A DNA stretch of 37,666 nucleotides, from the UHGV virus genome UHGV-0324630. The stretch is one strand, 5' to 3'. The notes under the pieces are model-generated. The model was not told the DNA's origin, did no database searches, and worked only from the letters and a program-made list of their open reading frames with translations. The stretch comes from a virus. The translations under genes and the position numbers were made by a program. How positions within the stretch are numbered: position 1 is the first letter of the stretch; each line of letters begins with the position of its first letter. Below, one piece after another: positions 206 to 37,453 of this stretch.

Positions 206-1207
206 TTACCCTCTATTGTCAAAAGGGTTCAATTCAACAGCAGCCTCTAAATGACCTGGAGCAAAATGCGCATAACGCATAGTCATTTTTATATCGCTAT
301 GCCCCAGTATTTTTTGCAACACAAGAATATTTCCGCCCCGCATCATAAAATGACTGGCAAACGTGTGACGTAGCACATGAGTTAATTGCCCATCAGGAAG
401 CTCGATCTTCGCTCTCTTAATTGCAGCGTCAAAAGCCTCATAACATGGTGAAAATAGCGCTCCTCGTTTTTTAGGAAGCATAGCTTGCAATTGAGGTGAA
501 ATCGGTACAGTGCGGTTCTTCTTTCCTTTAGTTTTAACAAATGTGATTCGACCGGGCAGTACTTGAGATTGCTTTAATCCTTCTGCTTCACTCCACCGAG
601 CACCAGTCGCAAGCCCAATACGGACAACAACCCCCAAATCTTTATTCCGTGACTCATCACACGCAATCAGAAGGCGTTCAATCTCATCTACATACAGAAA
701 CGCCAGTTCCTTTTCTTCCTCACGAAACTTGCGAATACCAGTCAGGGGGTTTTCACCAGACCACTCCCCAAGGCGCTTCAGTTCGGCAAAAACAGCATGT
801 AGATATGACTGCTCGCGATTAACGGTTGCTTCACTAAGTTTTTTCTTCCCCTTGGGATTCCATTCTCCTGATAGCCTTCTTTCCCGATAAGTAGCAAACA
901 TATTTTTGTCAAACTGAGAAGCAAATGGATCTCCCAGCCTGGAACAAATCGCCTCAAGTTTGACTTTGCGCTCTGCACCAGAGGACAAGGTTTTACCGTA
1001 CATCTCAAACCAACGAGCAATCAACTCAGAAAGACGAGGACCAGAACCATCTTGAAACTCGTCTCCAACTCTACTATTCATTAAACGGCGCTCATAAGAG
1101 AGCGCCTCACTTTTTGTCGCAAACTGTTTACGAATGCGTTTTCCCGATGCCCCGTAGGGATAACATTCGCAAAGCCATTTACCTGATGGAATCTTACGAA
1201 CCGACAT
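206..1207 (-). CDS. int: Tyrosine-type site-specific integrase (P2/P4 phage integrase family)
   Basis: 333-aa ORF; C-terminal catalytic region ...LRHTFASHFMMRGGNILVLQKILGHSDIKMTMRYAHF with the R..H..R..Y pattern typical of phage tyrosine recombinases; lies next to the tRNA-derived att core. Confidence 0.92.
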   Translation of the reverse strand: MSVRKIPSGKWLCECYPYGASGKRIRKQFATKSEALSYERRLMNSRVGDEFQDGSGPRLSELIARWFEMYGKTLSSGAERKVKLEAICSRLGDPFASQFDKNMFATYRERRLSGEWNPKGKKKLSEATVNREQSYLHAVFAELKRLGEWSGENPLTGIRKFREEEKELAFLYVDEIERLLIACDESRNKDLGVVVRIGLATGARWSEAEGLKQSQVLPGRITFVKTKGKKNRTVPISPQLQAMLPKKRGALFSPCYEAFDAAIKRAKIELPDGQLTHVLRHTFASHFMMRGGNILVLQKILGHSDIKMTMRYAHFAPGHLEAAVELNPFDNRG

Positions 1208-5626: not shown

Positions 5627-5805
5627 GTGCGTACTGTATTGCCACGTCTTTTTCGCGTCAGAATTATGGCGGGGCGTACGGGGCCGACTTCGGTCGGGCC
5701 GGATTCTTTGCTCTCCGGTGTTGAGAACCCTGTACGTCTCGCCACCCCGAGATTCTCAACTCTGGATGGTGAGTTATTTCTATCACCGAGCAAAGAGGCC
5801 ACACC

Positions 5806-12253: not shown

Positions 12254-13300
12254 TCAGGCTGTGGGCTGAGTGTCTAACAGTGCGTAAGGGTTAAAGCGGA
12301 TCACCTCTTCGCCCAGCCAGTCATTGATGTGCTTCATGGCCTCCATGACGGGCATCAGCTCATTAATTGCGTAAACCCGCGCGGCCTTCTCCACATCACC
12401 AAACGCACTTTTTTCGCCCGGCATCGCCCCCATCAGTTGCGGTGGAACGCGGTGCGCAGCCAGCACATCATCACGGGATGCCGCCTTAACATTCATGAAC
12501 TCATCCTTTGCGGTGATCTGCTGGAACGGCAAAATTTGCACCCCTTCTTTGCCCCCGTTGGGCGCATGAATGAGCACGTTTTTAAACGCACCACCACCAC
12601 GTGCCCCCTGTAGCGTTTCTTTCAGTGAGTCCATGCTTTCGCGGTTTACCTGCGCTGCACCGATGTAGATGATGCACCCGGCGTGGGAGCCGTTGTCGTA
12701 GTACAGTTTTCTGAACATGTCCGCCGAATGAGACAGGCTGGCCGAGAGTAATGCACCAAGATATTCCGGCATGCCGTAGATTTCCTGGTTAATATCCGGA
12801 TTCATCAGGTGGCACACTTTGCCAGGGCGAAACTGAAACGCGTCCTTACCATCCTGCACATACCACCATGATTCAAGATCGCTTCCGCGTCGCATGTATT
12901 TCGCCAGGGCGTGCCGTAATTTAAGCGGTTCGCCGAGCATATTGCTTCGAAGCTCAAGGAATGCGTTACCGAACACAAACCAGTCCAGCGCCAGCGCCGA
13001 GAAATCCTGCCGGGAAAGCAGCGGGTGCGGGATGTAGCAACCGAGTAATACATTGCGCTTAAAGTAAAGCGCAGATTGATGCCAGGACGTTTGCCGGGCA
13101 GCTCTTGCCAGACCGTACCAGTCCACCGGGGTTTCATACCACCGCCCGTTATCAGCACAGTACATATTGTCCAGCAGGTCATGCCCGGTCAGGCGGTAAG
13201 GACCATCAAATGTGAATGCACTGAGCGATGATTCTTTCCTGAGCGCATCAGCGAGATCAATGCGTGAACTCATGCGCACTTTTTTATTTTTTCTGCTCAT
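12254..13300 (-). CDS. Q: Portal protein (P2 gpQ-like, PBSX-type portal family)
   Basis: 348-aa ORF directly downstream of and overlapping (TGATG) the large terminase gene on the minus strand; size and position match P2 Q. Confidence 0.88.
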   Translation of the reverse strand: MSRKNKKVRMSSRIDLADALRKESSLSAFTFDGPYRLTGHDLLDNMYCADNGRWYETPVDWYGLARAARQTSWHQSALYFKRNVLLGCYIPHPLLSRQDFSALALDWFVFGNAFLELRSNMLGEPLKLRHALAKYMRRGSDLESWWYVQDGKDAFQFRPGKVCHLMNPDINQEIYGMPEYLGALLSASLSHSADMFRKLYYDNGSHAGCIIYIGAAQVNRESMDSLKETLQGARGGGAFKNVLIHAPNGGKEGVQILPFQQITAKDEFMNVKAASRDDVLAAHRVPPQLMGAMPGEKSAFGDVEKAARVYAINELMPVMEAMKHINDWLGEEVIRFNPYALLDTQPTA

Positions 13301-15051
13301 CAGAACTCCATAACCGTGAAACGCTCGTTTTCTCCTTCGCCGCCAATCGGTTCGTTAATGACAGCAAGCATGGTTGCCCACGCAAGGTCGCCGTGGCTAA
13401 TCCCCCTCGCGCGGTCCGTTTCGTAAGTGATAAAGCCGCCCGGTGTTTTCACCTTACGCACGGCGTTAAAGGCCGCGACCAGCTCGCGTTCGGCGCGATC
13501 GTATTCCCACCGCCCGGCACGCATTATTTGCAGCATTTTCAGTACCAGCGACCGTTTTGATGACAGCGTGAAGGTGTACGGAATAGCTGCAGGGAAAAAC
13601 CGTTTCACTATCTGATAAACAGCCTCCCCGTTCCCGCCCGTCACATCAATGCCGATGTGTTCCACGTTGTAGCGATACGTGAACTCTTCAATGACTCTGG
13701 CCTGTTCTTCAAACTCCAGCCCCTGAACGCGTCGCGTCTCCACCGTTCGAAAACGGCCACCAGGAACAGCCGGAGGAACCACCACGGACACTGCACCGCT
13801 GTCGCCGTTTCCACTGCTGCCGTTTGCGTCATACCCAATCCATACCGGACGATTCCCCATCGGGCGGGGAGCAAAAGGTTTCCAGTCTTTCCAGTCGTCG
13901 TATCCGTCAACACCGCAGCCAATCAGGATATTCAGGTTAAATGCCGATTCCCCTTCGCGAACAAACTCACACATATAGAGATTGAGGAACTCGTCTTCGG
14001 TGTTTTCATCACGGATTTCGTCAATATCGGTGTGTTTCCAGCCGTGATTAACCACATCTTCCAGCGTGACAATTTGCCGCCACGTCCGGTCAGGGCAGAT
14101 AAGCCCGTTATGCAGCGTTTTCCAGTCCACAGAAAAACGCTGGCGTTTATGCGAGGCCTTTTTCTCGTTCCAGCGGTCGCCGTTCCAGTAGGCGTATGCC
14201 TCGTGCGTTTCGGTGGATGGCGTGGAGAAGTAGGTGCGCCGCAGTCCGCTGAGGGTTGCCATAGCGCCAGCCACCTTGCGCAGTTCAGCAAAGCGACTGA
14301 CCCAGAAAAATTCATCAAAATAAAAATTGCCCGTATAGGACTGTGCCGACGCAGCAGAAGTGCCGAGAAAATGCAGCTCTGCGCCGTTGGAGAGGATGAT
14401 TTTATCGCCCCCTTTCAGCTCCACATCAACTTCAGCCGCGGCCTTCTGAATAATGCTTTTAAACTGGAACGCCTGACGACGCGACGCAGACAAAAAAATC
14501 TGGTTACGCTGGTAAGGTTGCGCCACATCGTCACGCAGCGCCATCAGCAGTGCTTCCTGTGCAAAATACCAGGTCGCCCCAATCTGTCGGGATTTCAGGA
14601 TCATCCTGTTACGTATCCCGGCTTCCCTGCAAAGAGTCAGGGAGTCAAACCAGCCCCGCTGATGCCACTCCAGCCTGCTGATGATTTTTTCCCGCAGTGC
14701 GGCAATCTGTTCCGGCGTGAAATGATTTTTAAGTTTTTTCGCCCGGCCTTTCTTTCCTGTGGCCGTCGCATCCGGCTGGCCATCATGCATTTTTTTAAGC
14801 TGCCGGGTCAGCAGGTCTATTTCCTTGAAGTCACCACCTGTTTTATTCTGTTTTTCAGTAAGCTGGATGAGGCGCGCATCGATGGACTGCGTGACACGCT
14901 GCACGGGTGGCGTTTCATCCCACTGGTCGCGTTTTTTCCACGCATAAATCGTGTTCGGGTTTATTCCCATCAGACGTGAGATTTCTGCGGGCGGATAACC
15001 CTGCCAGTAAAGTTGCCGCGCACGCTGGCGCACAAAAGCGTCCTGAATCAT
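13300..15051 (-). CDS. P: Terminase large (ATPase) subunit, P2 gpP-like
   Basis: 583-aa ORF; N-terminal HTH-like segment (RARQLYWQGYPPAEISRLMGINPNTIYAWKKR) followed by an ATPase/nuclease-sized body; divergent from the scaffold/capsid operon as in P2. Confidence 0.9.
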   Translation of the reverse strand: MIQDAFVRQRARQLYWQGYPPAEISRLMGINPNTIYAWKKRDQWDETPPVQRVTQSIDARLIQLTEKQNKTGGDFKEIDLLTRQLKKMHDGQPDATATGKKGRAKKLKNHFTPEQIAALREKIISRLEWHQRGWFDSLTLCREAGIRNRMILKSRQIGATWYFAQEALLMALRDDVAQPYQRNQIFLSASRRQAFQFKSIIQKAAAEVDVELKGGDKIILSNGAELHFLGTSAASAQSYTGNFYFDEFFWVSRFAELRKVAGAMATLSGLRRTYFSTPSTETHEAYAYWNGDRWNEKKASHKRQRFSVDWKTLHNGLICPDRTWRQIVTLEDVVNHGWKHTDIDEIRDENTEDEFLNLYMCEFVREGESAFNLNILIGCGVDGYDDWKDWKPFAPRPMGNRPVWIGYDANGSSGNGDSGAVSVVVPPAVPGGRFRTVETRRVQGLEFEEQARVIEEFTYRYNVEHIGIDVTGGNGEAVYQIVKRFFPAAIPYTFTLSSKRSLVLKMLQIMRAGRWEYDRAERELVAAFNAVRKVKTPGGFITYETDRARGISHGDLAWATMLAVINEPIGGEGENERFTVMEF

Positions 15052-23466: not shown

Positions 23467-26124
23467 ATGAGCACGAAATTTAAAACCGTTATCACTACTG
23501 CCGGAGCCGCGAAGCTGGCAGCCGCCACTGTCCCCGGCGGGAAAAAAGTAACTCTGTCTGCAATGGCCGTGGGTGACGGTAATGGCAAATTGCCGGTGCC
23601 GGATGCCGGTCAGACGAAACTGGTGCATGAGGTCTGGCGTCACGCTCTGAATAAAGTCAGCGTGGATAACAAGAATAAAAACTATATCGTGGCTGAACTG
23701 GTTGTACCGCCAGAAGTGGGCGGCTTCTGGATGCGTGAGCTGGGTCTGTATGACGATGCCGGAACACTGATTGCGGTCGCTAACATGGCGGAAAGCTATA
23801 AACCTGAACTCGCTGAAGGCTCCGGGCGCGCGCAGACCTGCCGCATGGTTATTATTGTCAGCAACGTGGCGTCCGTTGAGCTGAGTATTGATGCCAGCAC
23901 AGTGATGGCGACGCAGGATTACGTCGATGACAAAATCGCAGAGCATGAGCAATCCCGCCGCCATCCTGACGCCACGCTGACAGAAAAAGGTTTTACTCAG
24001 TTAAGTAGCGCAACAAACAGCACCAGTGAAGAGCTGGCGGCAACGCCAAAGGCAGTAAAAGCAGCCTATGACAATGCTGAAAAACGTATGCAGAAAGACC
24101 AGAACGGTGACGATATTCCAGATAAGGGCGCTTTTCTGGACAATGTTGGCGTTACCAGCCTGACGTTTATGAAAAACAATGGCGAAATGCCGCTTGATGC
24201 TGACTTGAATACATTTGGTCCCGTTAAGGCTTATCTTGGCATCTGGTCTAAAGCAACATCCACCAACGCAACACTGGAGAAAAATTTCCCGGAAGATAAT
24301 GCTGTCGGTGTGCTTGAGGTTTTTGCAGCTGGCAATTTTGCAGGCACGCAACGTTTTATCACGAGAGACGGCAATGTATACATGCGTAAACTCGCCAATA
24401 AGTGGAATGGCACTGATGGTCCGTGGGGCGTATGGCGTCACACTCAATCAGCTACCCGCCCTTTGAGTACGACTATAGACCTGAATACGCTTGGAGCCGC
24501 TGAGCATCTTGGTTTATGGCGTAACAGTAGCTCGGCTATAGCTTCATATGAACGCAATTATCCAGAGGAAGGCGGCTTTGCTCAGGGGACGCTTGAGATC
24601 CTCGAAGGCGGGAATTATGGAAGAACGCAACGTTATACCACTCGTCGTGGGAATATGTACGTTCGCTGCCTTGCGGCAAGCTGGGATGCATCAAATCCGC
24701 AGTGGGAACCGTGGTTAAGAGTCGGTCATCAGTCAGAGAGCCGTTATTACGAAGGTGATTTGAATGTTCTAACCGACCCCGGTATTTACAGTGTTACAGG
24801 AAAGGCGACAAACGGTCCGATGCTGGACGCTGCTGGGGCGACATTGCTTGGGATACTGGAAGTAATCAGGCGTTTTGATGGTGTATCTGTCTGGCAGCGT
24901 TACACAACCACAGGAAAATCAGAAACCACACAGGGGCGCACTTTTGAGCGCGTCTACGCCGGGAGCACATGGACCGAATGGCGAGAAGTGTATAACTCCT
25001 TTTCGTTGCCCCTGAATATGGGGATCGGTGGCGCAGTGGCAAAACTCACCAGCCTGGACTGGCAGACCTACGATTTTGTGCCGGGCAGTCTGATAACCGT
25101 TCGGCTTGATAACATGACCAATATTCCCGACGGTATGGACTGGGGCGTCATTGATGGCAACCTGATAAACATCGCTGTTGGTCCGAGTGATGATTCCGGT
25201 ACGGGGCGCTCAATGCATGTATGGCGCAGCACTGTAAGTAAAGCGAATTACCGCTTTTTTATGGTTCGCATTTCAGGAAATCCGGGAAGCCGCACGATTA
25301 CGACAAGACGTGTGCCAATTATCGACGAAGCTCAGACATGGGCGGCGAAACAGACATTCAGCGGTGGTCTTTCTGGCGAACTATCCGGCAATGCTGCTAC
25401 AGCAACAAAGCTGAAAACGGCAAGGACAATTAACGGCGTAAAATTTGACGGCTCGGCAAATATTGAAGCGTTTCCGCCAGGTGTTCCGCTGCCGTGGCCA
25501 TCAGATACTGTGCCGTCTGGTTACGCCCTGATGCAGGGACAGACTTTTGATAAATCTGCATACCCGAAACTTGCAGTCGCTTATCCGTCAGGCGTGATCC
25601 CGGATATGCGTGGCTGGACAATCAAGGGCAAACCCGCCAGTGGTCGGGCCGTATTGTCTCTGGAACAGGACGGCATTAAATCGCACACCCACAGTGCCAG
25701 CGCATCCAGTACGGATTTGGGTACGAAAACCACATCGTCGTTTGATTACGGTACTAAATCAACGAATAACACAGGTGCACATACCCACAATGTATCTGGT
25801 ACTGCAAATAGTGCTGGCGCACATACTCATACCGTTCCATTAAGGAGACCAAACAGTGGCGGTATGAATTTCGACTGGCTGGATGGTGCATCAAGTGGCA
25901 CGGTGGTGGGGAATGGAACTGTGCCTTCTTCTGGCGCACATACCCACTCAGTATCAGGTACCGCTACAAGTGCTGGGGCACATGCACACACTGTTGGTAT
26001 TGGCGCTCATACGCACTCTGTTGCGATTGGTTCACATGGACACACCATCACCGTTAACGCTGCTGGTAACGCGGAAAACACCGTTAAAAACATCGCATTT
26101 AATTATATTGTGAGGCTTGCATAA
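23467..26124 (+). CDS. H: Tail fibre protein, P2 gpH-like N-terminus with a divergent C-terminal receptor-binding region carrying His-rich GAHTH repeats
   Basis: 885-aa ORF; conserved N-terminus [40 protein letters not shown]; C-terminal repeats [22 protein letters not shown] / [40 protein letters not shown]. Confidence 0.88.
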
Positions 26125-26741
26125 TGGCATTCAGAATGAGTGAACAATCACGTACTGTAAAAATTTATAACCTGCTGGCCGGAACTAATGAGTTTATTGG
26201 TGAAGGTGACGCATATATTCCACCTCATACAGGGCTGCCAGCCAATTCTACAGATATCGCCCCACCGGAAATTCCTGCTGGCTTTGTGGCAGTTTTTAAC
26301 AGTGAAAATGAATCGTGGAATATTGTTGAAGACCATCGTGGTAAAACGGTCTATGACGTGGCATCGGGGGACGCGTTGTTTATTTCTGAACCCGGACCGC
26401 TACCAGAGAATGTCACCTGGTTGTCGCCAGCAGGGGAGTATCAGAAGTGGGACGGCGTATCCTGGGTGAAGGATGAGGAAGCAGAAAAACTGTTTCGGAT
26501 ACGGGAAGCGGAAGAGAAAAAGGCAAGGTTGATCCAGGAAGCAACAGATAACATCGCAATTCTGCAGGATGCAGTTAATCTTGAAATAGCAACAAACGAG
26601 GAAAATTCACAACTGGATTCCTGGAGAAAATACAGAGTATTAGTGAGTAGAATTGACACCAGTACAGCTCCGGATATCGTATGGCCAGAGCTGATGAATC
26701 AGGGTTATGTGCGGGAGGACGAGCAGATAACTTCAGACTGA
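26124..26741 (+). CDS. G: Tail fibre assembly chaperone (Tfa/gpG-like)
   Basis: 205-aa ORF, ATG overlaps the H stop (TAATG); sits directly after the fibre gene. Confidence 0.8.
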
Positions 26742-27933: not shown

Positions 27934-27939
27934 GACTCC

Positions 27940-30783
27940 TCAATCTTTATCGTAAAAACTGCCACGCCCGGCACGGGCGCGCCGTTCCATTTCTGCCCTG
28001 ACCATTTCACCGACCAGTTTCGCCAGTTCGCGGGGATTCTGCGTAACAACGTTATGCAGATGAACATGAATTTCACCACCAAATCCGGAGGCAACAGGCT
28101 CCCGGTTACGGGAAGTTACAGGAACTGATGCCACTGGAGATCGTATGGCCTCCGCCACCGGGCGGGAGCTGGCCGCAACAACAGGGACCAGCGCCGGAGG
28201 CAGCGGAGCCGGGACCACGGGTGTGATATTAATTGCGGGGGCAGGCTTACTGACCTGCGCAATCTTCCGCTCCTGCCACTCTCCACGAACAGCAAGTGCG
28301 CGGGGCAGGTTCTTAAAGACAATATCGCCGGGGCCAATGCGTTTTTTCGTCTCATCAACCAGCTTACCTGTGTTATCAGCAATTTTGCTGAGTCTGCGTA
28401 GCGTCCCGGTATTGCTGTCTGTGAGCGGTTTGTTGTCTTTGGGTTTATTACCTCCGGTGCCATTGCCATTTTCCACAGGCTTCGGCGGATTGATTTTCGC
28501 CAGGTCACCCTGAAGCAAGGCAACCTTGTCCTGAAGAATGGCCGCACGCTGTGCGTCTTCGATTTTCTTGCGCGCTCTTTCCGCTTCATCCGGAAGGACG
28601 CCAAGTTTTTCAAGTATCCACGCCAGCGTATCCAGTAGCATTTTTGCAGGTGTCAGAACAAGCTGTAACGCACCGCCAAGAACGTTACCGAATATCTCGC
28701 CAGCACTGGTACATTTATCCAGCGTTTCCTTGCTGGACTCCATCGGTGACAGCAGCGATTTAAACCAGTTAAACACCTGGCTGATCCCGCTTCCGATTGT
28801 GTCAAAAACAGGACCAAACCGTTCAAAGGTTTCGCGCAACGGGGTCAGCCTTTCCATAATCCCGCTGAACACCCCGGCAAAAAATGCCCTGATGGGATCC
28901 CAGTATTTCCAGATAAGAACGGCAGCTCCGGCAAGCGCAGCCACGATAAGACCAACCGGACTGAACAGCGCCCCGATAGCGCCTCCCAGTAAAGAAACGG
29001 AACCCGTCACCATTCCCCACAGCGCAGGCAACACCCTGACGACATTCATTGACCGGGTAAGAATGTCAAAACCAAGACGCAGGGTGGCCAGCTTCCCGTA
29101 AAGCACCCCAATAACCAGCGACAACGAGCCAATCGTTGCAGTCATTGCCAGCAACGCACCGCCTGCTATCAGTAGCTGGCGCGTCAGTACCGGATGGGCC
29201 TGCGCCAGCGAGGTGATTTTTTCAAGCACCCGCGTGAGCCACTGCGTGACAGAACGCAGCGGACCGTCAACCAGATCACTGATGCGAATACGAAGACCTT
29301 CCCATGCGCTGTCGAGATTTTTCAGGTCCCCATCAAGATTATCGGCCATTACTTTTGCGACGCGATCGGCCTCTCCCCTTGCCCCCTGCAATTCTCTGGT
29401 CAGTTTTTGCAGCTCTCCTGAACCAGCCGCCGCAACAAGCGTCTGCAAACCAACGAACGCCTCTTCTCCGGCGATGTCCTTGAAGAAGGAAACCTGGTCC
29501 ACCTGTCCGTATTTTTGTGTCGCCTTATAGAGATCAAGCAGCACATCCTCCATCGGGCGCATTTTGCCTCTGGCGTCAGCAACTGACACCCCCAGCTCTT
29601 TCAGTGCATCAGCCGCAGCTTTTGGCGGTGATGCAAGGCGGGACAGACTTGCGCGCATGGCCGTACCAGCATCGCTTCCGCGAAGACCATTATTGGCAAG
29701 CATCCCGGCCATGGCTGCCGCTTCTTCAAGACTGATACCAAGTTTTGCGGCAACCGGACCGGTATACTTCATGGTTTCGCCCAGCGCGCGTAAATCAGTA
29801 TTGGTCCGGGTGAATGCTGCTGTCAGCGTATCGCCAACACGGTCCATTTGATCGGCTGTCAGGTTGAACTGTGTGAGGATATTGGAGCCTATATCAGCCG
29901 TCTCGCCGAGTTCGACGCCACCTGCCAGCGCCATATTAAGAACACCGGGCAATGCGGCCTGAATGGCCTGCGGAGTAAAACCAGCCATTGCCAGAAAGCT
30001 CTGCCCACTGGCGGCATCACTCGCAGTAAACTGTGTTTCAGAGCCAAGTTTTAACGCCTGCTCACGCAGCGCCTTAAACTGCGGGCTGTTTTTGTCGATT
30101 CGCGTCAGTGCCTGAACACGGGACATCTCTTTGCCGAACCCGATCGCAGGCTGCAAAAAACGCCCGGCAGCATAGCCGCCCGCCGTTGCCGCACCAATTG
30201 CCAGCGCACCACCTGTTTTCAGTTTTCCCGCTGTTTCCTGCGCGCGCGAATACCGCTCACGCGCCCGTGTTACACGCGCAAGCGCCTGCCGTTCGCGTTC
30301 AAGCTGGTTGTTGTACTGTTCGGTGCGTCTGATGGCCTGCTGGATGGTGTTATCGCTGCCTGTCAGGGAAATGCCGTGGCGTTTCAGCTCTCCGCCAAGC
30401 TCCCGCATTTTCTGAATTTCCCGTGTGCGCGATTCATTCAGGCGTTCAAGCCGGGTGCTTAACTGCTGCATCAGCTTTTGTTGTTTTTCGCTGAGCACTG
30501 TACCCGTGCGTTGTAACTGATTAAGGGCGTTAAGCTGGCGTCGTGCTTTCAATATGCCAGCATCCGCTTTACTGACAGCGTCACGGGCGCGCTCAAATGA
30601 ACGCGCCTGACGCTCGAGATTTTTGATCGCCCCCTGCGTTCGCTGGATGGAGTCACCAAACTGCCCCATCAGGCGGCGGGCGTTTTCGGCAGGCCGGGTC
30701 AGCCTGTCAACGGCGCTGAAAGCGACCCGGATGTCAAGAGTCTTCATTGTCTGCATTCCCGCTGCGAAGTGCCGCCCGCTCAC
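27940..30783 (-). CDS. T: Tail tape measure protein, P2 gpT-like
   Basis: 947-aa ORF; long coiled-coil N-terminal half, Gly/Ala-rich hydrophobic central segments, position between E/E' and U. Confidence 0.88.
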   Translation of the reverse strand: MSGRHFAAGMQTMKTLDIRVAFSAVDRLTRPAENARRLMGQFGDSIQRTQGAIKNLERQARSFERARDAVSKADAGILKARRQLNALNQLQRTGTVLSEKQQKLMQQLSTRLERLNESRTREIQKMRELGGELKRHGISLTGSDNTIQQAIRRTEQYNNQLERERQALARVTRARERYSRAQETAGKLKTGGALAIGAATAGGYAAGRFLQPAIGFGKEMSRVQALTRIDKNSPQFKALREQALKLGSETQFTASDAASGQSFLAMAGFTPQAIQAALPGVLNMALAGGVELGETADIGSNILTQFNLTADQMDRVGDTLTAAFTRTNTDLRALGETMKYTGPVAAKLGISLEEAAAMAGMLANNGLRGSDAGTAMRASLSRLASPPKAAADALKELGVSVADARGKMRPMEDVLLDLYKATQKYGQVDQVSFFKDIAGEEAFVGLQTLVAAAGSGELQKLTRELQGARGEADRVAKVMADNLDGDLKNLDSAWEGLRIRISDLVDGPLRSVTQWLTRVLEKITSLAQAHPVLTRQLLIAGGALLAMTATIGSLSLVIGVLYGKLATLRLGFDILTRSMNVVRVLPALWGMVTGSVSLLGGAIGALFSPVGLIVAALAGAAVLIWKYWDPIRAFFAGVFSGIMERLTPLRETFERFGPVFDTIGSGISQVFNWFKSLLSPMESSKETLDKCTSAGEIFGNVLGGALQLVLTPAKMLLDTLAWILEKLGVLPDEAERARKKIEDAQRAAILQDKVALLQGDLAKINPPKPVENGNGTGGNKPKDNKPLTDSNTGTLRRLSKIADNTGKLVDETKKRIGPGDIVFKNLPRALAVRGEWQERKIAQVSKPAPAINITPVVPAPLPPALVPVVAASSRPVAEAIRSPVASVPVTSRNREPVASGFGGEIHVHLHNVVTQNPRELAKLVGEMVRAEMERRARAGRGSFYDKD

Positions 30784-31263
30784 GCCAGCTAACCACTTCG
30801 CCGGGCGTCATCATGAAGATTTCGGCGGGCGACCAGTTAAAAATGGCGGCAATATCCGCCACCAGATCTTCGATGTGCTCAAAGCACACCAGGGTGATTA
30901 CGCTGCCGTCTCCTGCACGCTCTTCGCGCCAGAGTCTGGCTCGCTCATAAAATTTACAGCCACAGCGCACAACTGAATAAAATCGCGTGACGACATTTTT
31001 TTAATCATCACTTCATCCAGTCGTGGCGAGGTCACGCGAGGCAACAGCGTGAACATGGTATCCGCTTTCAGATTCAGCACATCAGACAGCGACAGACCAC
31101 GCAGGGATCCAGCCTGCTCAATAGCCCCGGTGATCTCCACATACGTGATTTTTTCGCCACCACGCTCAATTGGTCGGGTCAGTTTTACGCCACGCTCGCT
31201 GGTTTCTTTCACAGTGTCAGCAACGACCGTATTTTCGGTATCGATGTTTTTCGTCACTTTCAT
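30734..31263 (-). CDS. Tail assembly chaperone gpE+E' (predicted -1 programmed frameshift product)
   Basis: The -1 frame is open from inside the A7 run to 30734 and overlaps the tape measure start, the classic G/GT, E/E' arrangement. Confidence 0.6.
30898..31263 (-). CDS. E: Tail assembly chaperone gpE
   Basis: 121-aa ORF downstream of the tube gene; its 3' end holds an A7 slippery run and overlaps a -1-frame ORF (E'). Confidence 0.8.
   Translation of the reverse strand: MKVTKNIDTENTVVADTVKETSERGVKLTRPIERGGEKITYVEITGAIEQAGSLRGLSLSDVLNLKADTMFTLLPRVTSPRLDEVMIKKMSSRDFIQLCAVAVNFMSEPDSGAKSVQETAA
30996..31002 (-). promoter_or_regulatory. Candidate -1 ribosomal frameshift (slippery) site: A7 on the coding strand (AUU AAA AAA AUG)
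   Basis: Seen directly as T7 on the plus strand; the -1 frame carries a TAA just upstream and is open only from within the A-run. Confidence 0.5.
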
Positions 31264-31317
31264 CAGGAAACTCCTTTCAGTCAGAGGCGACGCACTGCGC
31301 CGCCTGCATATTACTTA

Positions 31318-31830
31318 TCAGCCAAGCCCGAGCGCGGAACGGATGCGATCGGGCACAATGTCCTTGCCGTCCTTCCGGTAAATGAAGTTCAGCAGGTCAA
31401 TCTCCCACAACGGGCGATCGTTAACACTCAGCTTGTAGTAGGTGTTTTTAATGGCGTAAGTGTGTGATGTGGCTTCGCCCTGTTTGGCTTCCCCCATATC
31501 AATTTCCGTCACACGTCCGCGCATTTCGACTTCATACAGGTCGCTTTCATCATCGGTGTAGTATTCACCCGCAAAACGCAGTAGCGTGCCGTCAATCGTG
31601 CCGCCATACTTCAGGAACAGCTCACGAACTGCGCCCCCCATGACAAAGCTCGCATCAAGCGCGGAGTCGTCCAGACCGAGATCAATACTTACCGCCCCCA
31701 TCATGCCACCACCCCGGTAGCTGTCGGTTTTGCGCGTCAGTTTAGGCAGGGTGACGGACGTCACCTTACCCACTTCGTTTTCACCATCCACAAACAGCGT
31801 AAAAAAGCGAAGATGTTTTGGTACAGCCAT
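31318..31830 (-). CDS. FII: Tail tube protein, P2 gpFII-like
   Basis: 170-aa ORF immediately downstream of the sheath gene on the minus strand. Confidence 0.88.
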   Translation of the reverse strand: MAVPKHLRFFTLFVDGENEVGKVTSVTLPKLTRKTDSYRGGGMMGAVSIDLGLDDSALDASFVMGGAVRELFLKYGGTIDGTLLRFAGEYYTDDESDLYEVEMRGRVTEIDMGEAKQGEATSHTYAIKNTYYKLSVNDRPLWEIDLLNFIYRKDGKDIVPDRIRSALGLG

Positions 31831-33014
31831 CAGGCACCTCCCAGCACCGCAAATGCGGGACCAAAGAATTCATCAGTAAACGACTGGTAAAGCTCCATGT
31901 CTTCCAGCGGAGGAACGGGCGTATATTTGTAGCGAATACGCACACGCCCCTGACGTAAATTCGTGGTGCTGTTATCCACGATGTCATACCAGCACTCCGC
32001 GCCAATCAGTTTCCCGGCAGTAACCAGTGAATCCAGTTTTGCCCTGATGGCACTGATAACATCCTTCACGTTCGCAGGCGTCAGTGGACTGTCGATGGTT
32101 TCAAACTGCGCTTCCGCAATTGAATCAGCCAGCACCTGTGCAGTTCGGGTATACACCTCAAAGATGTAGGCGTTCGTTTCCGGTGTGCGGTTGCCCCAGA
32201 AGCGGAACCCGTTGCGACGAATAATGGTCGTGATTTCTTTGTTGTTGAGGCTGTTGGCATCGCTGTCTTCGGCCTGCAACGACCAGAACACATGCCTGGA
32301 CATCCCCAGCACATTTTTAACCGGAACATTGGACAGTGATTTGTGCCATCCCTGCTCATGGTCAATGTACGCACGAAGGCCGCACGCATAGGCAGGCGCG
32401 GGGAACGTTTCGTTTTTGCCACTTTTCGGGTTGTAGGCGATGAAGTCCGGCCATAAGAGCATCACCTCACGTTCATTGAATTTCTGGCGGTAGGTAATCG
32501 CCTCAGCCATCGTGTTACAGCCGTGACATGAGGCATACACAAACGCGCGCAGTTTACCCGCAATCACGCACAGGGATTTTGTTACCGCCTCCGTATCCAG
32601 CTCCGGCGCGGCCAGAATACGCGGACGGTATCCGATGCTTTCATCCTGCTCTGCAACAAGCAGCGCATACATCCCCGTATAGCTGCCGTCAGATTCAGAA
32701 CCACCGATAACCAGTTGATCCTGCGTTTTTCCGTCTTCTTCTTTGTGTTCAGCCACGCGAACGACGATCACCTTTGTGCTCACCTGGTCTGCGATGGCCT
32801 TAAGCGCACGATAAAGCGTCCCCGTTGTTCCGCATTTTCCCAGCACGTCATTGACGCGGGTCAGCAGTGTGGGCTTGTTCAGCGGGAACAGCTCCGCGTC
32901 CGCATCATCCGCCATTGCCACGATACCGATAACACTGGAATCAACATCATTAATCGCTGTTACCAGGTCGGTACTTTCCGTAACACGGGCACCATGAAAA
33001 CGAGTTTCACTCAT
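31830..33014 (-). CDS. FI: Contractile tail sheath protein, P2 gpFI-like
   Basis: 394-aa ORF; size and position match P2 FI (about 396 aa). Confidence 0.9.
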   Translation of the reverse strand: MSETRFHGARVTESTDLVTAINDVDSSVIGIVAMADDADAELFPLNKPTLLTRVNDVLGKCGTTGTLYRALKAIADQVSTKVIVVRVAEHKEEDGKTQDQLVIGGSESDGSYTGMYALLVAEQDESIGYRPRILAAPELDTEAVTKSLCVIAGKLRAFVYASCHGCNTMAEAITYRQKFNEREVMLLWPDFIAYNPKSGKNETFPAPAYACGLRAYIDHEQGWHKSLSNVPVKNVLGMSRHVFWSLQAEDSDANSLNNKEITTIIRRNGFRFWGNRTPETNAYIFEVYTRTAQVLADSIAEAQFETIDSPLTPANVKDVISAIRAKLDSLVTAGKLIGAECWYDIVDNSTTNLRQGRVRIRYKYTPVPPLEDMELYQSFTDEFFGPAFAVLGGA

Positions 33015-33171
33015 AGCTTCAGCCCCTTGTATCCGTTAAATGATTCGGCAACAATCATCACCCACCACGCGCGTAATCTCACCCCTGCGCCGTTCTCCCG
33101 ACCCGGCGACAACAAAAAGCAGTAACCCCCTCCGCACGCACATGCGACCATGCCGCACAGGGAGGGAACAG

Positions 33172-34281
33172 ATGACCGATACCACCATGCAATTGCTCAG
33201 TCAGGGCACAGACCCCGTGAAAATGCCGGATTTTGATATTCTCGCGGAGGGTAAAACGCTGTCAGGCGTGGCAGAGCGCCTGATGAGCCTGTCACTGACC
33301 GACAACCGGGGATTTGAGGCGGACCAGCTCACCATCACGCTGGATGATGCGGATGGTCAGTTGCAGCTACCGCCACGGGGCGCGCGCCTGACGGTTCTCA
33401 TTGGCTGGAAAGGAGAACCGCTGACAGAAAAAGGCACTTACATTGTTGATGAAATCGCTCACGAAGGACCGCCGGACAGGCTGACTGTTTCAGCCAGAAG
33501 CGCAGATTTTCGGGATGAATTTAACGTTAAACGTGAAGTGTCCTGGCATGATGTGACCGTTGAGCGCGTGGTATCCGCCATCGCTCATCGGTATGGTCTG
33601 AAACCGCAAATCAGCGAAATGCTGATGGATATCGAAATCGACCACGCCGACCAGACCGAAGAAAGCGACATGTCCTTCCTCACGCGCATGGCGGAAATGC
33701 TGGGCGCAATCACCACGGTAAAAAGCGGTAACCTGTTATTCATCATGCCCGGCGGTGGCGTGAACGCACAGGGCCAGCCGTTGCCCTCGTTCGCCATCAC
33801 ACGCAGCAGCGGCGATCGCCATCAGTTCCGCATTGCTGACCGCGAAGCGTATACGGGGGTACGCGCTTACTGGCTTGATCTTAATTACGGGAAAAAGAAA
33901 AAAGTCAGCGTGAAACGCCGCAAACCGCCAAAACCCAAAAAGGAGAAAAGCAGCAGCCGTGAAGGTGATTATATGGAAGGCGCAGAAGGCAATGTGTTTG
34001 TGTTACGCAAGACTTATCAGAACGAGCAGGCAGCAAGACGCGCAGCGGCGGCAAAGTGGCAGCAGCTACAACGCGGAGCCGCATCATTTTCCATCACGCT
34101 GGCGCGTGGACGTGCAGAACTCTACCCCGAAATGCATGGCACGGTAACAGGATTTAAAAGCGAGATTGATAATCAGGACTGGATTATTGCAAAAGCCGAG
34201 CACACTATTGATGACAGTGGCTTTACCACACAGCTTGAGCTTGAAGCAAAAATCCCGGAATGGATAGCGGAAACAGAATGA
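33172..34281 (+). CDS. D: Tail/late control protein D, P2 gpD-like
   Basis: Start taken at ATG 33172 (GGAGGG RBS); about 369 aa. The track's upstream extension from 33040 overlaps the sheath-gene upstream region and is rejected. Confidence 0.88.
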   Translation: MTDTTMQLLSQGTDPVKMPDFDILAEGKTLSGVAERLMSLSLTDNRGFEADQLTITLDDADGQLQLPPRGARLTVLIGWKGEPLTEKGTYIVDEIAHEGPPDRLTVSARSADFRDEFNVKREVSWHDVTVERVVSAIAHRYGLKPQISEMLMDIEIDHADQTEESDMSFLTRMAEMLGAITTVKSGNLLFIMPGGGVNAQGQPLPSFAITRSSGDRHQFRIADREAYTGVRAYWLDLNYGKKKKVSVKRRKPPKPKKEKSSSREGDYMEGAEGNVFVLRKTYQNEQAARRAAAAKWQQLQRGAASFSITLARGRAELYPEMHGTVTGFKSEIDNQDWIIAKAEHTIDDSGFTTQLELEAKIPEWIAETE

Positions 34282-34680
34282 GCAAATTAGATGTATTGAC
34301 TCAAACCAGAACTGACACACTCACAGCACAGTGCCAGACCCAATCTGGCAGCCCGCTTTGTGCCTAGAGCAGGTGTTGCTTATGTAACAGTTAATCCACG
34401 GATAGTGGTCATGAATGCTGGTTGAAGTTGTATTGCCATGAGTGGTCAATTAGGGACTCACTTATTATCGCGTGCTCACCATTGATGGGTAAGATCATGC
34501 ATTTCGGCTACTGTACTTCGCGAATCCTCCACACACAGGCAACACCTGATTTAAGAACAGAGGGAGATGATGACGCAAGGAAGATTTATTATCGTGCATG
34601 TGGCAGATGATCTTTTAGCTGCCGGAGTGATAAATTACACCTATTTTCGATAAGTGTTTTTGTTATAGAACATTAATTTC

Positions 34681-35820
34681 GTGGGAAACAATAAAGTGAA
34701 ATTAGGAAGAAATGATAAGTGCTGGTGTAATTCAGGACTTAAGTATAAAAAGTGCCATCTTGGTCGAGACCGTGAAACTCCGGTATCCAAAGCCGAGGCA
34801 CTGAAATTTTCAAAGTCTCTCTCGCAGAGAAAGGCATGTTATGCGCCAGCATCCATGCACGAAGATTGTGATAAACGCATCGTTCAGGCGCATACGATAT
34901 CTAAGAGCAGTAGCCTTAAGGCGATCGCCGACTCCAGCAATCACGTCATGGGGGTGATAATGAACTTAGCAAGCCTGATGAGAAACAACGGAAAATGGCT
35001 TCCCGAGAAGATCGGTATCAATCAGGCATCCACTTTTACAGGATTTTGTGCAGTTCATGACAGAATCTTGTTTTCATGCCTAGAGAACGAAAAATTTACA
35101 GGCACGGACGAGCAGTGCTTTGCCTTAATGTTTCGTTCATTGTCTAAAGAAATTTACGCCAAAGAAGGGGGAGTGCTATCTTCCGATTTTGCTAAAAATG
35201 CCGATAAAGGAAAGCTACAAGTTGAACAGTATTATATTCAGAAATTAATCGACCAGCACCAAAGTGGCTTAAATGCAGCAATAATTGAATTAAATAATCT
35301 TAAAACTAGCCTCGACCGCATCCTACTTAGCAGGCAATTTTCAGAAATTGAAAGTGTTATCTTCACTTTTGCAGAGCCTTTACCAATTGTAGTTTCGTCA
35401 ATTCTTTCACCGGAGAGGGATTTCGATGGGACCAAAATTCAGGATTTGAGCGATCTTACAGTGTCGGCGGAACAAGTATGTTTCAATGCTTTTTCCTGCG
35501 GAGGTAAGGGATATGTAGTGTTCAGTTGGCTGAGAACTTCAACAATTATCAGACGTTTTATACGGACACTAATTAAGATCCCGGCTAACAGGATGTTCAA
35601 TACCCTTCTGTATTTTTTCTTCACAAAGGCCGAAAATACATATTCATCCCCTGAGTGGTGGGACAGGCTCAGTGATAAACAGCGAGAGAATATCGGCAAC
35701 ATGATTATGTCAGGGGTTGAATTTTTTGGCAGACCTACATCACAGGTTGATCATTCCGTTGATTATAACGCCGCTGCACTTGAAGAGATAACATGCAGCA
35801 ACAACGAAATTTGCAGCTGA
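34681..35820 (+). CDS. Uncharacterised protein with N-terminal SEC-C-like zinc-binding motif (C-W-C-x8-C-H); AT-rich cargo gene inserted between gpD and ogr
   Basis: 379-aa ORF (GTG start, start uncertain; alternative GTG at 34696); N-terminal KCWCNSGLKYKKCH; rest unrecognised; strongly AT-rich with about 400 bp and about 290 bp non-coding flanks. Confidence 0.65.
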   Translation: MGNNKVKLGRNDKCWCNSGLKYKKCHLGRDRETPVSKAEALKFSKSLSQRKACYAPASMHEDCDKRIVQAHTISKSSSLKAIADSSNHVMGVIMNLASLMRNNGKWLPEKIGINQASTFTGFCAVHDRILFSCLENEKFTGTDEQCFALMFRSLSKEIYAKEGGVLSSDFAKNADKGKLQVEQYYIQKLIDQHQSGLNAAIIELNNLKTSLDRILLSRQFSEIESVIFTFAEPLPIVVSSILSPERDFDGTKIQDLSDLTVSAEQVCFNAFSCGGKGYVVFSWLRTSTIIRRFIRTLIKIPANRMFNTLLYFFFTKAENTYSSPEWWDRLSDKQRENIGNMIMSGVEFFGRPTSQVDHSVDYNAAALEEITCSNNEICS

Positions 35821-36109
35821 ATGTTTACATGCTGTTAGAAAAAGCGGGCTGAACAATCATTTCGGGATTGTAACAGATAAGATGGCACTGCCCGCTTGCT
35901 TCCCGATATGTACCTCAGCCAATAAACTTATGTAAGCAACCGATTTCCATTTATGCGGAGGTTATCAAAGTTGTTGGAGTTGCGAACTTCCGCTCTTCGC
36001 ACAAAGCGTACCGCTAGGTTTGATTGTATTCTGGCTGCGCAAACTGTCAGTTGGAGTCTGAGCTATTACAACTTAGAATAGCGGCAGCACCACGTTAAGG
36101 GAGGTCGCT

Positions 36110-36370
36110 ATGTTCCGTTGTCCGCTTTGTGGCGCATCTGCCCGAATCCGCACCAGTCGTCCGGAAAACGATTCAAACACTGTGCGGCAAAAGTATTACC
36201 AGTGTAACAACCTGGAATGCGGCGTATGCTTCTCAACACTGGAAGCTTTCCATAAATTCACATCAAAACACGCCTCCGGCGTTCACTCTTCGGAAGGTAT
36301 CCCGTGGCATGAGCTGCCAGCTTCACACAGGGGAAACAATCAGATGAGTTTGCCTTTACCTCAGAATTAA
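36110..36370 (+). CDS. ogr: Ogr/Delta-family zinc-finger late-gene transcription activator
   Basis: MFRCPLCGASARIRTSR...QKYYQCNNLECGVCFSTLE matches the P2 Ogr pattern (MFHCPLCQHAAHARTSR...RYHQCQNVNCSATF, from memory): C-x2-C ... C-x4-C zinc finger. Confidence 0.85.
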   Translation: MFRCPLCGASARIRTSRPENDSNTVRQKYYQCNNLECGVCFSTLEAFHKFTSKHASGVHSSEGIPWHELPASHRGNNQMSLPLPQN

Positions 36371-36561
36371 CAGGCAGAATTGCCGGAGTAACAAAAAAAC
36401 GATAGATTACCCGCGGGTGCCTTTCGGCTGATGGTCGGAGGGAATACCCGAAGGCCGGATGTGGAAAGGCCCCGGAAAACATTTCTGTTTAACCGAGGCC
36501 CTAACATATCTACCTTAAGCAAGTGATAGGTTAGCGCCTCTCCAACAAAGGAGCAAGCGCT

Positions 36562-36702
36562 ATGTCGCAAAAATCGCTTACGGCCATCACGTTCTGCGTG
36601 ACGGTAATCCTCATCATCTGGATGCTACACGGTTCGCTGTGTGAAATACGGATGAGCTTCTGGGGAGCGGAGTTTGCGGCGTTCTTACAGTGTAAGCAGT
36701 AA
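36562..36702 (+). CDS. Hok/Gef-family type I toxin (small membrane toxin)
   Basis: 46-aa ORF with AAAGGAG RBS: MSQKSLTAITFCVTVILIIWMLHGSLCEIRMSFWGAEFAAFLQCKQ; N-terminal TM helix then the SLCEIR motif characteristic of Hok/SrnB/PndA; not in the ORF track (below 60 aa). Confidence 0.8.
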   Translation: MSQKSLTAITFCVTVILIIWMLHGSLCEIRMSFWGAEFAAFLQCKQ

Positions 36703-36890: not shown

Positions 36891-37172
36891 TTACTCAGCA
36901 TTCTCCTGCTTCCATTGCCGGATCATTTCATCGGTAACATCACCCTCATAACATACCACGTCATACCCTCCATTACGGCTATATGCACTGCGTCCACCAC
37001 ATCTACTACCATTCCTTGCATGATTAAAAGGACACGCACAATTGCCTGGATAAGATTCAATGGATTCTTTAATTATTTCTTTTTTGATCTGAGCATCAGA
37101 CTTTCCTGTTGCTGCATATCCACTAAAAGATACTAAACAAAGGCAGATTGCCATTAATAAACCACATCGCAT
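36891..37172 (-). CDS. Small secreted cysteine-rich protein (signal peptide), unknown function; AT-rich
   Basis: Start taken at internal ATG (MRCGLLMAICLCLVSFSGYAA signal-like N-terminus); mature part has 5 Cys; true start uncertain (track ORF extends to 37286). Confidence 0.45.
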   Translation of the reverse strand: MRCGLLMAICLCLVSFSGYAATGKSDAQIKKEIIKESIESYPGNCACPFNHARNGSRCGGRSAYSRNGGYDVVCYEGDVTDEMIRQWKQENAE

Positions 37173-37453
37173 ACCGATACACTCTATTACTAACCAATCA
37201 TAGCCCACATCATAAAATCGAGATGAGGAGCACAATACCTTTAACAAGAAGGTGTCATAACGATAATATGTCGTGCAATTCATCAAAAAAAAGATCTATA
37301 TCAAAGAGATAGAACTCTTATCAGTGCTTCAGACATCGGCATTCGAGGCAGCAGAAAAACAGTAAATCTGACGAATTTGCCTTTTCCCAAGATGTTGTCA
37401 GATTAAAAAGATAGATTAGCGCAGGTACCTGTTGGTGGATTGCAGGAGGAAAA

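Follow-up and report, generated by a model that had tools for sequence, protein, structure and literature searches.

A moron cassette between D and ogr of a P2-like Escherichia coli prophage, carrying a probable anti-phage gene of the Rugutis family

In most related E. coli prophages, for example that of UTI89, the tail gene D is followed by 42 nt and then by the late-gene activator ogr. In the P2-like prophage studied here (UHGV-0324630; the window is the whole 37,666-nt stretch of DNA that was analysed) a low-GC segment of 1.8 kb lies between the two genes, and we asked what this segment is, how it came to be there, and what its gene might do. Both conserved flanks are readily recognised. 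On the left, D (late control D, or baseplate hub; 33172..34281, plus strand) matches Pfam Phage_GPD (E 7e-17); its longest open reading frame is 33040..34281, with a likely start at 33172, and its homologues in RefSeq are 369-aa proteins named "phage late control D family protein". On the right, ogr (36110..36370, plus strand) matches Ogr_Delta (E 5e-14), and P2-like phages without the insert have exactly the same 41 nt immediately before it. GC content is 0.38-0.45 over 34300-36000, compared with 0.51-0.57 in the tail genes, and the segment contains one ORF of 379 codons with non-coding flanks of 399 nt upstream and 289 nt downstream. These measurements agree with an earlier note on this DNA, which had described an AT-rich insertion between gpD and ogr, one large ORF, and non-coding flanks of about 400 and 290 bp. 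A search of the cassette against Rfam gave no match; the sole Rfam match, sok-like, is downstream of ogr.

The gene (34681..35820, plus strand) is called from a GTG at 34681 and encodes 379 aa, although translation probably begins at the second GTG (34696), since nearly all homologues start with MKxGRN. Near its N terminus the product carries CWCNSGLKYKKCH, which the earlier note had read as a SEC-C-type zinc motif; residues 10-27 match Pfam SEC-C with 34.4 bits (cutoff 20.4; E 2e-8). In SecA, YecA and YchJ, the SEC-C zinc knuckle binds SecB or ribosomes, and in this protein it is a putative docking module. The roughly 350 residues that follow, to which the earlier note could assign nothing, have no assignment by domain: matches of the protein in PADLOC, PHROGs, NCBIfam and Pfam were confined to the SEC-C motif, Pfam searches with all 46 aligned homologues gave SEC-C and no further domain, and PDB sequence searches with protein and profile queries returned only motif peptides of SecA, YchJ and YecA. 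SEC-C motifs recur at the ends of the PADLOC defence proteins E2, E1-E2 and PDC-S12, and in PADLOC v2.0.0 it was these models that the motif matched; the PADLOC search proposed in the earlier note thus picked out the motif, while no model recognised the body. The AF2 model of the protein is confident (pLDDT 89.2, pTM 0.88), and fold searches with it found no significant relative in the PDB. Within the body, C53, C63, C123 and H126 form, to judge by conservation, a probable second zinc site; with the invariant residues beside it (H71, D127, E135, R152, K161 and N319), this putative site looks like the centre of a metal-dependent enzyme.

A kinship for the whole protein came from plasmids. A tblastn search of plasmids with the window protein matched a 359-aa SEC-C protein of the Lactococcus plasmid pUCCL633A, which agrees with the published Rugutis (pUCCL633_059, 359 aa, SEC-C; PMC11381338). 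BLASTP aligns it with Rugutis over 358 columns at 26% identity (E 2e-37; residues 5-347 against 3-336), and hhalign of the two family alignments gives a probability of 100% and an E-value of 3.1e-69 over 326 columns. The Rugutis clade and the clade of the window protein share every candidate catalytic and zinc residue. By these sequence comparisons the cassette protein is a distant, full-length member of the Rugutis family. When counted as 50%-identity cluster representatives at E <= 1e-30, the family has 1481 members, nearly all of about 370 aa and matched over their full length. Neighbouring genes differ in each context examined and there is no constant partner, which indicates a stand-alone gene.

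Rugutis is an experimentally validated, single-gene lactococcal anti-phage system that acts after DNA injection (PMC11381338). [quoted passage not shown] The function that the earlier note had supposed undescribed therefore has a described relative, to which the protein is homologous from end to end, and the anti-phage role that it had offered as one possibility would be, through this homology, the best-supported function. The structure modelling that it had proposed ended in a confident model with no PDB relative. Rugutis was reported in July 2026 to be missing from both PADLOC and DefenseFinder (PMC13335696), and surveys of P2/P4 cargo that are based on these tools are blind to the Rugutis-like family.

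The gene is an accessory one. It is carried by 80 of 5426 complete E. coli genomes (1.5%), which, with a D-ogr junction that is empty in most related prophages, bears out the suggestion that it is single-gene cargo. The full-length E. coli carriers listed have an uninterrupted ORF whose identity is 98% or more and reaches 100%. A scan of genome contigs with a single-sequence query found five true loci. An 86%-identical copy in a Salmonella P4-like island adjoins an AAA_15 and DUF4435 (PARIS-type) pair, and further copies sit in variable islands; across genera the cassette is conserved at about 83-87%, with the ORF intact. Some O157 strains have a decayed version of the host prophage, with IS elements in the tape-measure gene and in D.

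A survey of the junction in related prophages revealed the behaviour of a hotspot. The gene is not fixed at D-ogr, since most relatives have an empty junction, and elsewhere the junction holds at least seven alternative cargos. These include a 500-aa PIN protein, a DUF3800 protein, a HEPN-like protein and at least three domain-less families, and they are not in PADLOC v2. Publications on P2/P4 cargo and hotspots (Rousset et al. 2022, PMC9122126; NAR 2026, PMC13586616; the iLund4u preprint, 10.1101/2024.10.15.618418) name neither ogr nor gene D, and the SEC-C motif, YecA and Rugutis do not appear in them. The "third hotspot" of iLund4u, which runs from a tail protein to CI, may include the D-ogr junction. 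We regard D-ogr as a compact, usually empty and under-mined hotspot, and its other cargos as cheap candidates for new defence genes.

The cassette is bounded by imperfect inverted repeats of about 90 nt (34289-34377 and 35985-36073), which the earlier note had overlooked. The left terminal repeat, TGTATTGACTCAAACCAGAACTGACA (34292..34317, plus strand), was recognised by repeat search and by its recurrence across loci. It pairs with the right terminal repeat (36045..36070, minus strand; reverse complement TGTAATAGCTCAGACTCCAACTGACA), the pairing of 34289-34317 with 36045-36073 covering 29 nt at 72%. The left subterminal repeat, AATCTGGCAG followed by the palindromic block CCGCTTTGTGCCTAGAGCAGG (34342..34377, plus strand), pairs with the right subterminal repeat (35985..36020, minus strand) over 36 nt, again at 72%. 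Within the window the terminal motif is found at the two cassette ends and nowhere else, and the terminal block is shared by the ends of other cargos and by copies of this cassette at other loci. In a local alignment of left against right end, the copy at the E. coli island L023 scores 36 against a shuffle maximum of 26; the window copy alone is marginal, at 24 against 24, and the case for the ends rests on their position and their conservation across loci.

Insertion at this site can be read against the empty junction of UTI89, tgaGCAACTTAGAATAGCGG. The filled site is GCAAATTAGA[TGTATTG...CTATTACA]ACTTAGAATAGCGG, and the cassette lies between two direct copies of a 6-7-bp target sequence: AATTAGA on the left (34285..34291), duplicating ACTTAGA of the empty site, and ACTTAGA on the right (36071..36077), which runs into the conserved 33-nt lead-in to ogr. 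The architecture itself is not new. Alignment matches the left subterminal repeat to the feature annotated as "left inverted repeat" in P2-EC31, and the right one to its "Right inverted repeat" (67.8% over 87 nt). The cassette ends are members of the group of "inverted repeats" that GenBank AJ512677.1 annotates at the P2 Z region. The earlier note had proposed a new insertion point in a P2-like late region; cargo insertion at D-ogr is real, but the design of the cassette had already been annotated at the Z region.

The same cassette occurs at unrelated sites with different flanking repeats. The flanking repeats seen are the imperfect A(A/C)TTAGA at D-ogr, where a one-copy empty site is available; a perfect GATAGC at L023, for which a search yielded no empty site, only a deletion derivative in E. 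coli M8; the imperfect CCTATG/CTTATG in Pectobacterium; and ATAAAC in a lambdoid prophage. No flanking duplication was seen in the Z region of E. coli W and EC2641, and the copies in the P4-like islands L010 and L003 are without the terminal block, retaining a subterminal block at most. The cassette contains no recognisable transposase. It is possible, and we put it forward tentatively, that the ends are working termini of non-autonomous cargo cassettes moved in trans by some transposase or recombinase that duplicates 6-7 bp of the target. In that case such cassettes would shuttle single-gene defences among sites in the Enterobacterales (Z/fun, D-ogr, a lambdoid prophage and genomic islands), and the Rugutis-like gene would be one passenger among them. 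Shared ends and a visible target duplication would provide a testable handle on gene exchange among phages, satellites and islands. In the match listing, candidate sequences resembling these ends also turn up on plasmids and in Stx phages.

The non-coding parts of the cassette are also conserved. A leader (34378..34695, plus strand), defined by its nucleotide conservation across genera, is about 83% identical in the copies of the cassette from Salmonella, Chimaeribacter, Pantoea and Pectobacterium and in that of another E. coli island. A 62-aa leader ORF (34422..34610) was considered and is ruled out by indels of 12-120 nt across it in homologous cassettes. We found no convincing sigma-70 promoter or intrinsic terminator for the gene. 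The repeat AGCGGGC...GCCCGCT to which the earlier note had drawn attention is present as an imperfect hairpin (35842..35897, plus strand) inside the conserved 3' part of the cassette, its arms (35842-35863 and 35876-35897) being 73% complementary. As a structure it fares less well, with a folding z of -1.18 against shuffled sequence, and it is unconvincing as a terminator; when the hairpin and the subterminal palindromes were folded as RNA, the energies were no better than those of shuffles (z from -1.2 to 0.06).

We considered several other accounts of the gene. RefSeq names the product "YecA family protein", which would make it a housekeeping relative of YecA or SecA acting in secretion or ribosome binding. 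The SEC-C motif is genuine, and the PDB and NCBIfam matches are indeed to SecA, YchJ and YecA-type entries, but they span only the motif of about 20 residues; NF007704 reaches 17.9 bits of the 149 required, on the motif only, and neither a UPF0149 nor a SecA domain is present. With matches of this kind, and with a gene that travels on a mobile AT-rich cassette in so small a fraction of E. coli genomes, membership in a known housekeeping family is effectively refuted. That the protein is a recombinase or transposase moving its own cassette is very improbable, even though inverted repeats end the cassette and direct repeats flank it, with no recognisable transposase between them, and the protein combines putative Cys/His metal sites with an unknown fold. 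At the same site, ends of this kind flank unrelated cargos (PIN, DUF3800, HEPN-like and unknowns), many family members live elsewhere (in Psychrobacter and, as Rugutis, in Lactococcus; judged by gene context), and Rugutis alone gives phage resistance (PMC11381338).

An inert passenger, a decaying gene with no current function, would suit the degraded state of the prophage in some O157 strains; we think it improbable, given the intact, nearly identical ORF in the listed carriers, the presence of every family-invariant residue, and the conservation of the cassette across genera. A moron that shares the ancestry of Rugutis but serves another purpose (anti-defence, regulation, or a virulence-related enzyme) is unlikely, though it deserves more weight. 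Cassettes of the P2 Z region with the same ends are annotated "putative lysogenic conversion protein", toxins and tail-fibre genes are examples of hotspot cargo that does not serve defence (10.1101/2024.10.15.618418), and identity to Rugutis is low. Against it, the architecture and the candidate catalytic and zinc residues are kept in both clades, which argues for one conserved biochemical activity, and there are PARIS-type genes among the neighbours.

We conclude that the segment at about 34285-36077 is probably a discrete moron cassette in a hotspot, and its gene a Rugutis-family, Abi-like defence. A cassette with imperfect inverted ends would have inserted into the 42-nt D-ogr spacer and duplicated 6-7 bp of target. 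Its gene, a family member by homology, would encode a single-protein anti-phage system resembling abortive infection. On the model of Rugutis, the lysogen would produce the protein in an inactive form until a late protein of a superinfecting phage (for Rugutis, the ATPase domain of the large terminase) switched it on, whereupon the body of about 350 aa would turn toxic and abort the infection. At 26% identity, specificity and even activity may differ from those of Rugutis. A terminase-sensing Abi gene would have to ignore the large terminase of the prophage itself (13300..15051, Terminase_6N/6C). Rugutis activity has so far been shown only in dairy lactococci, and the tightly knit proteobacterial clade found in E. 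coli prophages offers a tractable host with large phage panels and an obvious list of residues for mutagenesis: the SEC-C cysteines, C53, C63, C123 and H126, H71, D127, E135 and R152.

Among known systems, the kinship to SecA (C-terminal metal-binding domain), YecA and YchJ is limited to a zinc knuckle of about 20 residues, CxC-x8-C(H/C) (PF02810, E 2e-8); here the motif is N-terminal on an unrelated body, UPF0149 and SecA domains are absent, and the gene is accessory and not core. Avs (STAND NTPase) defence systems sense the phage large terminase. They are comparable by analogy only, in that a conserved late phage protein, the large terminase, activates an abortive response, as reported for Rugutis; there is no kinship of sequence or domain, and the window protein has no NTPase domain. 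Rugutis (WP_137016746.1; Grafakou et al. 2024, PMC11381338; Mosterd et al. 2025, PMC12184496) is similar throughout: a single gene of about 360-380 aa on a mobile element, an N-terminal SEC-C motif, end-to-end homology with shared invariant Cys, His, Asp, Glu and Arg residues, and a confident AF2 model without a PDB relative. It differs in its modest identity, in a motif that ends C-C where that of the window protein ends C-H, in its location on a Firmicutes plasmid and not in a proteobacterial prophage, and in its trigger, as the window protein cannot respond to the same terminase.

The setting, too, has precedents. Like the P2/P4 hotspots (old/tin between A and Q; Z/fun; P4 int-psu; PMC9122126, PMC13586616, 10.1101/2024.10.15.618418), D-ogr is a variable slot between conserved phage core genes that receives alternative defence-like cargos of one or a few genes, and the same gene occurs in a P4-like island; unlike the main ones, it is empty in most prophages. 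The closest parallel in architecture is with the Z/fun morons of the P2 Z region, which Nilsson, Karlsson and Haggard-Ljungquist reportedly described in 2004 as bounded by inverted repeats. Those of P2-EC31 (AJ512677.1) have left and right inverted repeats of about 90-110 nt, of the same sequence family and collinear with the ends in the window, flanking a single AT-rich gene with its own leader. They lie between G and FI, whereas the cassette described here lies at D-ogr, where a clean empty site and the 6-7-bp duplication can be seen.

The P2-like prophage of the window (integrase, 206..1207; large terminase, 13300..15051; tail-fibre assembly gene, 26124..26741; sheath and tube genes on the minus strand) has a gap of 1828 bases between its plus-strand D gene, which stops at 34281 (Pfam Phage_GPD, E 7e-17), and ogr at 36110..36370 (Pfam Ogr_Delta, E 5e-14). 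GC content in this segment is 0.38-0.45, against 0.51-0.57 in the adjoining tail genes, and its only long ORF, at its centre (34681..35820), encodes 379 aa, of which residues 10-27 match Pfam SEC-C at E 2e-8, exceeding the curated cutoff. The gene call, composition and domain match thus agree with the earlier note, which had described an AT-rich insert carrying one large ORF with a SEC-C motif. Translation probably starts at the second GTG (34696), because nearly all homologues begin MKxGRN. An AGCGGGC/GCCCGCT repeat, also described earlier, is present in the sequence, but RNA folding was no better than for shuffled sequence (z = -1.18).

RefSeq names the product 'YecA family protein' (WP_001317900.1). 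We rejected a YecA identity, since the SecA, YchJ and YecA-type NCBIfam matches are confined to a zinc knuckle of about 20 residues; nor did either the protein or 45 aligned relatives contain a Pfam domain besides SEC-C. PADLOC models E2, E1-E2 and PDC-S12 do match, but they, like the PDB chain matches, cover only the same knuckle of about 20 residues. A word-indexed search returned 296 relatives of the same ~370-aa architecture across Gammaproteobacteria, and an exhaustive profile search returned 1481 cluster representatives at E <= 1e-30 and 3526 at E <= 1e-10, nearly all of them full-length matches; judged by these alignments, the family is large and uniform.

This family includes a characterised member. 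In a TBLASTN search of plasmids, residues 5-284 matched the 359-aa SEC-C protein of the Lactococcus plasmid pUCCL633A, the single-gene anti-phage system Rugutis. Pairwise BLASTP gave 26% identity over 358 columns (E 2e-37; residues 5-347 against 3-336), and profile-profile comparison of the two clades gave a probability of 100% (E 3.1e-69, 326 columns). On these three comparisons the homology is secure, and the window protein belongs to the Rugutis family as a distant relative that aligns from end to end, so that its function can no longer be called undescribed, as it had been. An AlphaFold2 model built on a 46-sequence alignment was confident (pLDDT 89.2, pTM 0.88), but Foldseek searches with it found no relative in the PDB (best E 0.064) or BFVD (best E 0.029), and the predicted fold is apparently new.

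Rugutis acts alone and after DNA injection, conferring strain-dependent resistance to skunaviruses and phage c2 (PMC11381338). Viability falls when the c2 terminase is co-expressed with Rugutis, and a mutant terminase remained toxic in this assay (PMC12184496); the effector activity is described as unknown (PMC13064643). By analogy, an anti-phage function of the window protein in E. coli is likely. An abortive response with a late phage protein, for instance the large terminase, as its trigger is a more tentative proposal, under which the prophage's own terminase (13300..15051) would have to leave the protein untriggered. Residues invariant in both clades comprise C14, C16, S18, K21 and C25 of the SEC-C motif, and C53, C63, H71, A116, F119, G121, F122, C123, H126, D127, F131, E135, R152, K161 and N319 of the body. 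Their conservation suggests that C53, C63, C123 and H126 likely form a second metal (zinc) site and that H71, D127, E135, R152 and K161 likely form a catalytic or binding centre, consistent with a metal-dependent enzymatic effector for which SEC-C would serve as a docking module. The locus opens a way to study, in E. coli, a defence system whose mechanism is unsolved and whose fold is apparently new.

The earlier note had also suggested a survey of the D-ogr junction in related prophages for alternative cargo, and such cargo is present. Among 5426 complete E. coli genomes, 1468 matched a D...ogr query and only 80 contained the whole insert. We sampled the ranked hits at even intervals, and 43 of the sampled records had both D and ogr: the junction was empty (D, 42 nt, ogr) in 27, as in UTI89, held the window gene in 4 and held other cargo in 12. 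Related E. coli prophages have at least seven other single-gene cargos in this slot (L012:1526-3028, L013:1495-2160, L014:1484-2920, L015:1392-2561, L017:1421-2443, L018:1486-2139 and L019:1496-2893). They include a PIN_4 protein (500 aa, plus strand), a DUF3800 protein (389 aa, minus), a protein with a HEPN_RiboL-PSP match below the Pfam cutoff (340 aa, minus), and domain-less proteins of 217/221 aa (plus) and of 465 and 478 aa (minus). Because PADLOC v2 gave them no significant match, with only a marginal PDC-M04A hit to the 478-aa protein (E 0.0096), they are candidate undescribed defence genes. The junction is therefore a genuine, mostly empty cargo hotspot, compact and with many unclassified single-gene candidates, and the window gene is accessory, mobile cargo; the anti-phage part of the earlier proposal is retained by way of Rugutis.

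For P2, the literature lists hotspots at A-Q (old/tin), at Z/fun among the tail genes, at int-att and at int-primase (PMC13586616), and a 'third hotspot' has been described between a tail protein and CI (10.1101/2024.10.15.618418), which may take in the D-ogr junction. These hotspot texts are silent on ogr, the SEC-C motif and Rugutis. Recent P2/P4 defence surveys likewise mention neither Rugutis nor SEC-C, which fits the absence of Rugutis from PADLOC and DefenseFinder in a July 2026 report (PMC13335696).

Comparison of the empty site, tgaGCAACTTAGAATAGCGG, with the filled site, GCAAATTAGA[TGTATTGAC...GCTATTACA]ACTTAGAATAGCGG (cassette in outer brackets), reveals a precise insertion with a 7-bp duplication containing one mismatch. 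The cassette ends (34285-34377 and 35985-36077) contain a terminal inverted-repeat pair of 29 nt (34289-34317 with 36045-36073) and a subterminal pair of 36 nt (34342-34377 with 35985-36020), each 72% complementary. Blocks common to the ends of other D-ogr cargos, TGTATTAGCTCAGAC..AACTGACA, then AATCTGACAG, then the palindrome CCGCTnTGTGCnAnnAGCGGA, occur in the window only at the two cassette ends and in the expected orientations. The end-against-end local score is marginal for the window copy alone (24, shuffle maximum 24) and not marginal for the copy in another E. coli island, L023 (36, shuffle maximum 26).

These ends belong, by sequence, to a widespread family of inverted repeats of about 90-110 nt. 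Matches to the 98-nt end sequence occur in 2138 of the 5426 E. coli genomes (1-4 places per genome) and in 146 plasmid and 107 phage records, the latter including P2 itself, peduoviruses of Yersinia and Klebsiella, and Stx phages. In P2-like prophages the sequence is found at the classical Z/fun hotspot, 5 nt beyond gene G. Single-gene morons bounded by this family sit at Z/fun of P2, at the D-ogr junction, in a lambdoid prophage (one copy, flanks ATAAAC) and in genomic islands. The loci with such ends, besides the window, are L023:7798-9425, L002:297-2055, L030:4498-4592 and 5716-5797, L031:4490-5109, and AJ512677.1:3-115 and 1616-1706.

The cassette moves as one unit: with leader and trailer, it recurs in other genomes at 83-87% nucleotide identity. 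The L023 copy (1628 bp) lies between two H-NS-like genes, with inverted repeats 86% and 75% complementary and a perfect flanking 6-bp GATAGC repeat, and a Pectobacterium copy is flanked by CCTATG/CTTATG. Copies of the gene with 85-87% protein identity are present in Salmonella, in Chimaeribacter and in other E. coli and Pantoea islands. The Salmonella copy, 86% identical (L010:13548-15694), belongs to a P4-like island with integrase, AlpA and DUF927 primase genes, adjoining a PARIS-type pair of AAA_15/AAA_21 ATPase and DUF4435 genes; a 275-aa unknown gene lies directly 3' of this locus on the opposite strand. Chimaeribacter copies have an Ogr/Delta-like gene nearby, further copies occur in other E. 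coli and Pantoea islands, and more distant relatives are chromosomal singletons, as in Psychrobacter. In a Pantoea agglomerans island (L024:7664-13364), several consecutive genes, among them the SEC-C gene and those for a DUF6602 protein and an unknown of 332 aa, are each bracketed by CCGCTnTGTGCnAnnAGCGGA in opposite orientations, which suggests an array of such cassettes. E. coli M8 (NZ_CP019953.1:2363265-2364410) has a derivative that keeps the left inverted repeat and leader and lacks the gene, the right repeat and about 145 nt of flank; this is deletion, not clean excision. The homologous prophage is degraded in many O157 strains (E. coli O157:H7, L001:5163-7099), with IS30 in D and IS1203 and IS30 in the tape-measure region; the cassette is intact in strain PV15-279.

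Several other features of the window were recorded. The sheath-tube-E-tape measure-U block (27439-33014, minus strand) is divergent from D (33040-34281, plus strand), so that in this lineage D and ogr make up a short unit of their own, whereas in P2 itself FI-FII-E-T-U-D is one co-directional operon. A hexapeptide-repeat acetyltransferase gene (26705-27268, minus strand) lies directly after the tail-fibre assembly gene and on the opposite strand to it, in the slot equivalent to Z/fun; RefSeq names its counterpart in a related O157 prophage serine O-acetyltransferase, and no inverted-repeat end motifs occur at the gene. Just 3' of ogr (36415-36572, plus strand) is a match to sok-like antisense RNA (Rfam RF01794; E 4e-8, 44.8 bits, below the gathering score of 59); together with the Hok/Gef toxin annotated at this position in related genomes, it would make a hok/sok-type module at the right end of the prophage. 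Beyond it, in a stretch of GC 0.35-0.40, a 131-aa ORF (36891-37286, minus strand) with a hydrophobic N-terminal segment and a Cys-rich C-terminal half had no Pfam match.

Transposition in trans, site-specific recombination and homologous exchange inside the shared ends are each possible ways for the cassettes to move. At four independent sites the element lies between short direct repeats of 6-7 bp, and no transposase was identified for these cassettes. The locus provides a testable model for the movement of such single genes. The architecture itself is not new, having been annotated two decades ago in the P2-EC31 proviral Z-region (GenBank AJ512677.1), where a 'left inverted repeat' and a 'Right inverted repeat' surround a single 'putative lysogenic conversion' ORF. 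We take this to be the record of Nilsson, Karlsson and Haggard-Ljungquist 2004, who reportedly argued for site-specific recombination. The window ends align collinearly with the annotated repeats, and in both systems inverted repeats of the same family enclose one ORF. What is new here is that the D-ogr junction is populated by this cassette type, with an empty site and short flanking duplications at several independent locations: whereas no flanking duplication was seen at the Z-region examples, the D-ogr cassette has both a 7-bp duplication and an empty site.
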